From a virus (taxonomy: Duplodnaviria; Heunggongvirae; Uroviricota; Caudoviricetes): a DNA stretch of 7,805 nucleotides. Of the stretch, positions 3,561-4,303 are shown piece after piece. The DNA lies in IMG/VR virus record IMGVR_UViG_2690316345_000001, positions 1 through 7,805 of that record; one strand, 5' to 3'. Position 1 is the first letter of the stretch. Every line of letters starts with the position of its first letter. The notes under the pieces are model-generated. The model searched no databases. It was not told where the DNA came from and saw only the letters and a list, made by a program, of their open reading frames with translations. The translations under genes were made by a program, and so were the position numbers.

Positions 3561-4047
3561 AAAATGCAGATTTAGGGAACAGATAGGAGGCGTTACACCT
3601 ATGGCATCTCATCCTATGGTTAGAAGGTGGTGCAAATCCTTCGTATTGAAGTATGGATTTCACAGAAGATTCATAGCATTGAGCGCAAAGATAGTGCATT
3701 GGCTGACCGGTATTTGCCGATTTTTTGAGACGATAAACCACCGTAGCAACAGTAGGTGTATACATCTCATAGTTTTTCTTTTCCTCTTCCCACTTAGAGG
3801 CTCGATTTATCTTTTCTTCAAGCTCAATAATCTTGTCCTTAGAAATCATCAAAAGCTCATTAAGTGACATTTGCTGCTGTTGGGCATCCATGAGCTTATC
3901 GACAAGTTCGTATGTTTTTTCTTTTACTGAGTAGTCTATTTGCATTTTCTGGATTTCCTTTACTGCGCCAACAGCACTCATCAGAGCACCTCCGGCACCA
4001 GAAACTGCATCTGTAATCCTACTTATTATTCCTTTTTCATCAGACAT
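3553..4047 (-). CDS. Hypothetical protein (164 aa): N-terminal Gly/Ala-rich hydrophobic patch, central coiled-coil-like region, C-terminal Cys4 zinc-ribbon motif; convergent with N at the locus lambda gives to sieB
   Basis: Minus-strand ORF; first ATG at 4047-4045 gives [10 protein letters not shown].... The supplied ORF begins 3 codons upstream at a GTG. Residues ~14-29 [16 protein letters not shown]; residues ~30-95 K/E/Q/L-rich heptad-like; C121-x2-C124-x23-C148-x2-C151. Its stop region overlaps the N stop by 8 nt (3553-3560). Family not recognised from memory. Confidence 0.6.
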
Positions 4048-4063
4048 ATAAATCACTCTCTTA

Positions 4064-4108
4064 CTGTAGGGGTAAGAGGATTTTACTATTTTTCTCGCTG
4101 TAGGGGTA
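4064..4108. repeat. Exact 11-bp direct repeat ctgtaggggta, two copies (4064-4074 and 4098-4108), 34-bp period, in the 5' region of the 3553-4047 gene
   Basis: Read directly from the sequence. On the minus strand the copies read tacccctacag and lie about 17 and 51 nt upstream of the ATG at 4047. Confidence 0.6.
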
Positions 4109-4257
4109 CACGAGAACCACCGAGCCTGATGTGGTTAAAAGACAGGCATACTAATAAACACTGCACTGTGTATTTATTCCAACGAGTGAATACACGGAGC
4201 AATGTCGCTCGTAACTAAACAGGAGCCGACTTGTTCTGATTATTGGAAATCTTCTTT

Positions 4258-4283
4258 GCCCTCCAGTGTGAGGGCGATTTTTT
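4258..4283 (+). terminator. Putative intrinsic terminator on the + strand (tL-like) upstream of the ea10-like gene
   Basis: gccctc (4258-4263), loop cagtgt, gagggc (4270-4275), then gatttttt. The minus-strand complement lacks a U-tract, so it is unidirectional. Confidence 0.55.
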
Positions 4284-4303
4284 ATCTATGAGGATATGAA
4301 TAG

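Follow-up and report, generated by a model that had tools for sequence, protein, structure and literature searches.

Compared with lambda, the interval between N and ea10 in the phage DNA described here very probably carries two independent module differences: the sieB coding sequence has been swapped, almost exactly from stop codon to start codon, for rip1, with the position, the antisense orientation and a leader of ~100 bp kept, and the orf28-ral module is absent, Rip1 being a single-protein abortive-infection defence expressed from the prophage. The identity of the gene, the exact breakpoints, the common leader and the swapping with sieB at the population level were all observed directly. 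The change of rip1 for sieB is ordinary module swapping between related phages. The window, which is the whole stretch of 7,805 nucleotides analysed (IMG/VR virus record IMGVR_UViG_2690316345_000001), is a lambdoid early region, and its + strand carries the early-left (pL) operon.

A review (PMC13434031) covering Patel et al. 2026 (Nature 651:1060), together with a meeting report and a citing paper, describes Rip1 as a prophage defence which is harmless alone. Late in infection, according to these sources, Rip1 binds the outside of a phage ring oligomer, either the small terminase 11-mer or the portal; the binding part is the C-terminal half, and twelve copies gather around the ring. The N-terminal amphipathic helices are reported there to form a membrane pore, the inner membrane is disrupted and the infection is aborted, with the cell killed before the progeny are finished. 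The review also locates the founding Rip1, in P. aeruginosa phages, between the genes for the small and the large terminase (PMC13434031).

Boundaries of the N-to-ea10 interval

The features of the window are collected in Table 1. The N stop at 3560 and the ea10 start at 4304 enclose 743 bp (3561-4303), as checked on the sequence and as the original prediction, made from the letters of the window, had counted. The lambda interval, which it put at over 1.1 kb, indeed measures 1132 bp from the N stop to the ea10 start by the lambda annotation (L002 1662-2793), and it contains sieB (antisense, 555 bp), orf28 and ral. The ea10-cIII spacer of 72 nt, the cIII/kil overlap of 32 nt and the kil/gam overlap of 46 nt, given in the prediction as lambda-like, are identical to the lambda annotation.

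Table 1. Positions of the features in and around the N-to-ea10 interval (coordinates of the window).
Feature	Position	Strand	Description
O, cII, cro		-	O is the replication gene; then cI, hex-like ORF, N, ea10, cIII, kil, gam, bet, exo
cI	1852-2484		434-type, 210 aa; similarity to phage 434
hex-like ORF	2574-2885		after cI; PGAP call in sibling prophages
N	3237-3560	+	lambda-type antiterminator, 107 aa; ATG at 3237; Pfam N36 1e-25; 96.7% to lambda
rip1	3553-4047	-	164 aa, pore-forming anti-phage defence protein (Rip1); lambda sieB slot, same orientation, antisense to the pL operon
Replaced segment	3561-4062		502 bp with no detectable lambda similarity by blastn; stands for the 555-bp lambda sieB CDS
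sieB-type leader cassette	4048-4148		~100 bp, directly upstream of the rip1 start codon; + strand homologous to P22 sas RNA
Junction TACT	4149-4152		sits where lambda has the 340-bp orf28-ral module
ea10 upstream region	4153-4303	+	98.1% to lambda and 434, collinear with both
Intrinsic-terminator-like hairpin and T-run	4256-4285		within the ea10 upstream region
ea10	4304-4672	+	DUF2528, 122 aa; Pfam DUF2528 3.2e-47; collinear with lambda ea10

The alignment to lambda and 434, proposed in the prediction as a check, placed the breakpoints at 3560/3561, 4047/4048 and 4148/4153. By blastn, positions 3014-3560 of the window align with lambda up to the N stop (96.7%), positions 4063-4148 correspond to the 86 bp directly upstream of the lambda sieB start (87%), and positions 4153-5950 align with lambda from 31 bp past the ral stop (98.1%; 98% for 4153-4303 alone). 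About 240 of the 743 bp of the interval are collinear with lambda. The segment 3561-4062 was unaligned also against the sibling prophage of E. coli LD26-1. On the right side, position 4148 equals lambda L002 2302 and position 4153 equals L002 2643, with orf28 and ral lying in L002 2303-2642, and phage 434 rejoins the window by blastn at 4153, the same coordinate as lambda. The tblastn search with lambda Ral and orf28 found no counterpart of either in the window (the best Ral match was of 9 aa, E 0.92, outside the interval), and together with the part of lambda that has no counterpart in the window (L002 2303-2642) this bears out the claim that ral is absent.

The prediction had named collinearity of the interval with lambda as the outcome that would count against it; the interval is not collinear, as unrelated sequence stands in place of the sieB coding sequence and the 340 bp of orf28-ral are absent. 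Its idea of one boundary pair around an accessory gene stood in so far as the swap is real, but there are two independently assorting modules and the right edge does not lie at the ea10 start. The swapped module is bordered on the left by N, whose final 8 nt are shared with the 3' end of rip1 in a tail-to-tail overlap.

Several observations concern the surroundings of the interval. The immunity region (1852-2885) is of the 434 type, positions 1900-3547 (most of cI, the hex-like ORF and N) are 96.5% identical to phage 434, and N is lambda-type. The site equivalent to the terminator-like hairpin is annotated as 'terminator' in the records of phage 434 and of HK/mEp phages. An Rfam scan of the interval found nothing; outside it, the Lambda cIII thermoregulator (RF01804) was detected at 4732-4790 (+) with 88.5 bits, where it is expected, upstream of and into cIII. 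The alignment of every close relative (ev099 and the E. coli prophages) ends at 7702, and the last ~100 bp (7703-7805) belong to a different module.

The sieB-type leader upstream of rip1

Alignment showed that the leader is conserved upstream of sieB in both lambda and P22, and it is conserved also before four other Rip1-family alleles (27-53% protein identity), including HK629/HK630 hkaP, vB_EcoM-689R2 and ECO95 1-6-1. The conservation starts at the start codon and ends at ...AAAAGACAGGCA, and the core of the leader (4091-4148) is near-invariant in the alignment with lambda, P22 and the four Rip1-family upstream regions. Two direct copies of CTGTAGGGG are located in the leader at 4064-4072 and 4098-4106, 34 bp apart. 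Every leader examined, whether of the sieB or of the Rip1 type, has both copies, at a distance of 34-35 bp; the sequence around the copy proximal to the start codon varies by lineage, and by eye different short hairpins around the motif are possible.

The sas RNA of P22, available as a 127-nt read-derived sequence (PMC13397905, Table 2), is a cis-antisense regulator of sieB translation (PMC12197685, PMC7067206). This RNA maps to P22 L012 1475-1601 and overlaps the sieB start. Positions 4064-4148 of the window, read on the strand opposite the cargo gene, are 87% identical to it, and their core 4091-4148 is nearly identical. RNAalifold on six leader sequences predicted 20 pairs, none with a compensatory change, and the covariation term was +0.39; the predicted stems of the sas region carry no information because they are almost invariant. 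A consensus scan detected no sigma-70 promoter upstream of rip1, the sole match being inside the coding sequence, and by eye a conserved hexamer (TAAAAT/TAAACT/TAATAT) was found in the leader with no convincing -35.

Two candidate coding features were also considered in this region. An esc-like internal in-frame start in rip1 was dropped, as M35 and M53 are not conserved across the homologues. In a + strand ORF at 3940-4218, residues 57-92 (about 4108-4218) match phrog_31828, a family of 51 aa, at 1.8e-11, over the leader and the ea10 upstream region; this family probably stems from ORFs called spuriously in non-coding DNA that is conserved.

What the leader is kept for can be read in two ways. 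It is conceivable, if somewhat doubtful, that it is kept only as a recombination 'linker' through which cargoes are swapped by homologous recombination, with no sas-like control of rip1. The sharp stop of conservation at the start codon and at ...GACAGGCA would fit such a linker, and so would the leader's want of covariation support and of a consensus promoter. The rip1 alleles carry no conserved esc-like internal start, a point in the same direction, and the SieB/Esc switch of P22 therefore cannot operate unchanged in rip1. On the other hand, P22 makes an antisense RNA of this sequence, which has been detected and characterised by experiment. The cargo genes, moreover, must have a promoter, and the DNA farther upstream shows no conservation from one context to another. 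A leftward transcript from pL is also necessarily complementary to the rip1 ribosome-binding site and start codon. These last points would suit a regulatory role, and a tentative and rather unlikely reading of that kind is that the leader (4048-4148) is a portable antisense-controlled expression dock, which captured two unrelated abortive-infection effectors, SieB and Rip1, the latter in at least five diverged lineages. Cleavage of the pL transcript would then yield a sas-like RNA that shuts off rip1 translation in the phage's own lytic growth, and this would contribute to self-immunity towards a defence whose triggers, packaging proteins, are among the phage's own products.

Identity of the antisense gene

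The best PDB match of the rip1 product, found with phmmer, was 9OOX chain L, 'ring interacting pore 1 (Rip1)', with E 1.4e-105; over residues 3-164 (162 aligned) there was one mismatch, an identity of 99.4%. The product is identical to the proteins of ev099, 720R6 and E. coli DETEC-S565 and is Y96H relative to HK446 gp37. The solved protein is most likely HK446 gp37, because both differ from the window protein at one and the same residue. The product also matches phrog_1244 (4.6e-53), and full-length homologues at 26-92% identity occur in several genera. Invariant in 15 homologues are four Cys (C-terminal CxxC...CxxC) together with D38, Y93, Y105, K108, L133 and Q134. The highest helical hydrophobic moment lies at residues 7-24, which is a weak test by itself; the amphipathic N-terminal helix and the ring-binding C-terminal half are given by the near-identity to the solved chain. 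The two general features of the family, sequence homology to solved Rip1 and coding by a prophage or temperate phage, were both found. Searches of Pfam, NCBIfam and PADLOC (2023) with the 164/167-aa protein returned sub-threshold noise only, and the family assignment therefore rests on the name of the PDB entry and on homology. For the start codon, the ATG at 4047 was preferred to a GTG at 4056 (167 aa), since it is the one used by HK446, 720R6 and PGAP and fits the solved 164-aa chain.

The original prediction had also mentioned that the antisense gene might simply be a sieB allele. That it is a diverged one, in a lambda-type sieB locus which merely lost ral, is now extremely improbable. The gene does occupy the position of sieB, being antisense, directly after N (gene 24 in P22) and behind the sas/leader sequence, and it shares the orientation and the upstream leader, while its 164 aa come close to the 183-192 aa of SieB. 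However, the SieB profile (PF14163) gave no match to the rip1 product at E <= 1, whereas in the same Pfam test lambda and P22 SieB scored ~1e-29 and even very diverged SieB proteins still scored 1e-8 to 1e-10. BLASTP of the product against lambda SieB gave E > 9, and no hydrophobic transmembrane stretch was found in it. These tests, together with the identity to the solved Rip1 given above, refute a diverged sieB. Lambda and P22 SieB are membrane proteins of PF14163, whereas Rip1 is soluble and has a C-terminal domain with four Cys, and rip1 differs from sieB further in having no conserved esc-like internal start; the slot after N, the antisense direction, the ~100-bp leader (sas on its opposite strand) and action against superinfecting phages are common to the two cargoes of the sieB-esc-sas type locus and the window. 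Our results show that rip1 and sieB have position in common, not protein ancestry.

It is just as improbable that the real gene is the 88-aa + strand ORF at 3601-3867, annotated in the RefSeq record of ev099 (NC_049953) where the antisense ORF is not, and that the - strand ORF is its shadow: the + strand ORF has no PHROG match, while the - strand ORF has full-length homologues with the invariant Cys, is annotated in HK446, 720R6 and PGAP E. coli genomes, and has a product of solved structure. The 88-aa ORF was rejected as a shadow ORF without family support. In NC_049953 it is entered at 34069-34335 as a 'hypothetical protein', with the antisense rip1 omitted, and E. coli RefSeq records place rip1 on the correct strand, also as 'hypothetical protein' (e.g. 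WP_001278766.1).

Exchange of cargo among prophages and its meaning

The N-rip1 arrangement is present in sequenced phages. HK446 has it with a 164-aa protein (which the window's Y96H distinguishes) and shares the upstream region as far as 4283; it differs from the window in its downstream anti-restriction gene and HK97-type recombination genes, where the window has ea10 and lambda red, and its immunity and replication context is only partly common with the window. HK446 and vB_EcoP-720R6 match the window over 3189-4283/4285 and diverge just past the hairpin at 4256-4285. The full N-rip1-ea10 arrangement is found in ev099. The hkaP gene of HK620, HK629 and HK630 belongs to the Rip1 family (27% identity) and occupies the same antisense slot, and the upstream region of HK629 is 96.6% identical to that of the window, including the ral-less junction; as an allele hkaP is, however, highly diverged, it is separated from N by an additional gene, hkaQ, and ea10 is absent. 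Other fillers of the slot were seen as well, which makes it highly variable: phage 434 (L003 1670-2539) has a 289-aa + strand gene annotated as Nun C-terminal-peptide-containing, SfI carries ral but no sieB, and in Huey and Sf101 the slot is occupied by other hypothetical genes. The survey of lambdoid prophages that the prediction had called for thus returned sieB with ral, rip1 without ral, a Nun-like gene (434) and ral without sieB (SfI).

Homologous Rip1 proteins are also encoded, antisense to the operon, by Mu-like phages of P. aeruginosa (JBD30 gp30; DMS3; D3112 orf25; MP38 ORF25). By tblastn, the Rip1 of the window and the 164-aa antisense ORF of JBD30, DMS3 and D3112 show about 30% identity (E 2e-17, 87% coverage). 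JBD30 gp30 (L007 2501-2995) lies on the opposite strand between gp29 and the large terminase gene; gp29, annotated as a DNA-binding protein, is presumably the small terminase, and we infer that gp30 is the published founding Rip1 because its location is the one given in PMC13434031. In contrast to the window, the Pseudomonas genes are situated in the late region between terminase genes and not in an early-left operon, CTGTAGGGG is absent from JBD30 (L007), and there is no sieB/sas-type leader. In both the late-operon context of JBD30 and the lambdoid early-left context rip1 is antisense to the lytic operon, so that lytic transcription would read against it.

Among 5426 complete E. coli genomes, 96 carry the rip1 allele, all at nucleotide identities of at least 99%, and the gene is labelled 'hypothetical protein' in every genome row listed. 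The N-rip1-ea10 arrangement occurs in 93 of these 5426 genomes, and the lambda-type N-sieB-ral-ea10 arrangement in 154 E. coli genomes. Sibling E. coli prophages differ only at the N-to-ea10 slot, and prophages of the same backbone exist in both forms (DETEC-S565 has rip1 without ral, LD26-1 has sieB and ral), which upholds the prediction of an exchangeable cassette, as near-identical backbones hold either sieB with ral or rip1 without it. Between the window and its closest complete E. coli genome, DETEC-S565, there are 4 differences in 3501-4500 and about 2.2% in the rest. These few differences, together with the 96 copies at least 99% identical, suggest that the rip1 cassette spread recently by horizontal transfer.

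A scan of IMG/VR with the core of the cassette found at least 119 loci, and in 110 of the matches listed a recognisable ORF lies behind the cassette. In these 110 loci the cargo behind the leader belongs to the SieB family in 88 and to the Rip1 family in 22, with no third cargo family among the matches listed. Among the same matches, ral is present in 46 and absent from 38 of the SieB loci, and in the Rip1-family loci it is present in 2 and absent from 17. Our survey shows that ral assorts independently of the cargo gene.

By analogy with the published system, the Rip1 of the window would be expressed from the prophage, assemble on the small-terminase or portal ring of an infecting phage, and form a pore. 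The window allele (Y96H compared with the solved protein) is probably active, and in the lysogen rip1 would be transcribed from within the conserved leader. Leftward transcription from pL would produce a sas-like antisense RNA over the ribosome-binding site and start codon of rip1, by which rip1 would be dampened in the phage's own lytic growth.

The locus counts as already known, because its cargo is a characterised defence gene and its arrangement occurs in sequenced phages; the only possible novelty is the occurrence of Rip1-family genes behind the sieB/sas leader. A function is assigned to a gene that RefSeq calls 'hypothetical protein' in E. coli genomes and for which the wrong strand is annotated in ev099. 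Lambda-type prophages exchange sieB for rip1, both of them abortive-infection genes, at a slot with precise bounds, and the putatively regulatory leader is kept. If the antisense RNA of the leader does control rip1, this would help to account for the tolerance of a prophage towards a defence that terminase rings set off, for an induced prophage itself makes such rings.
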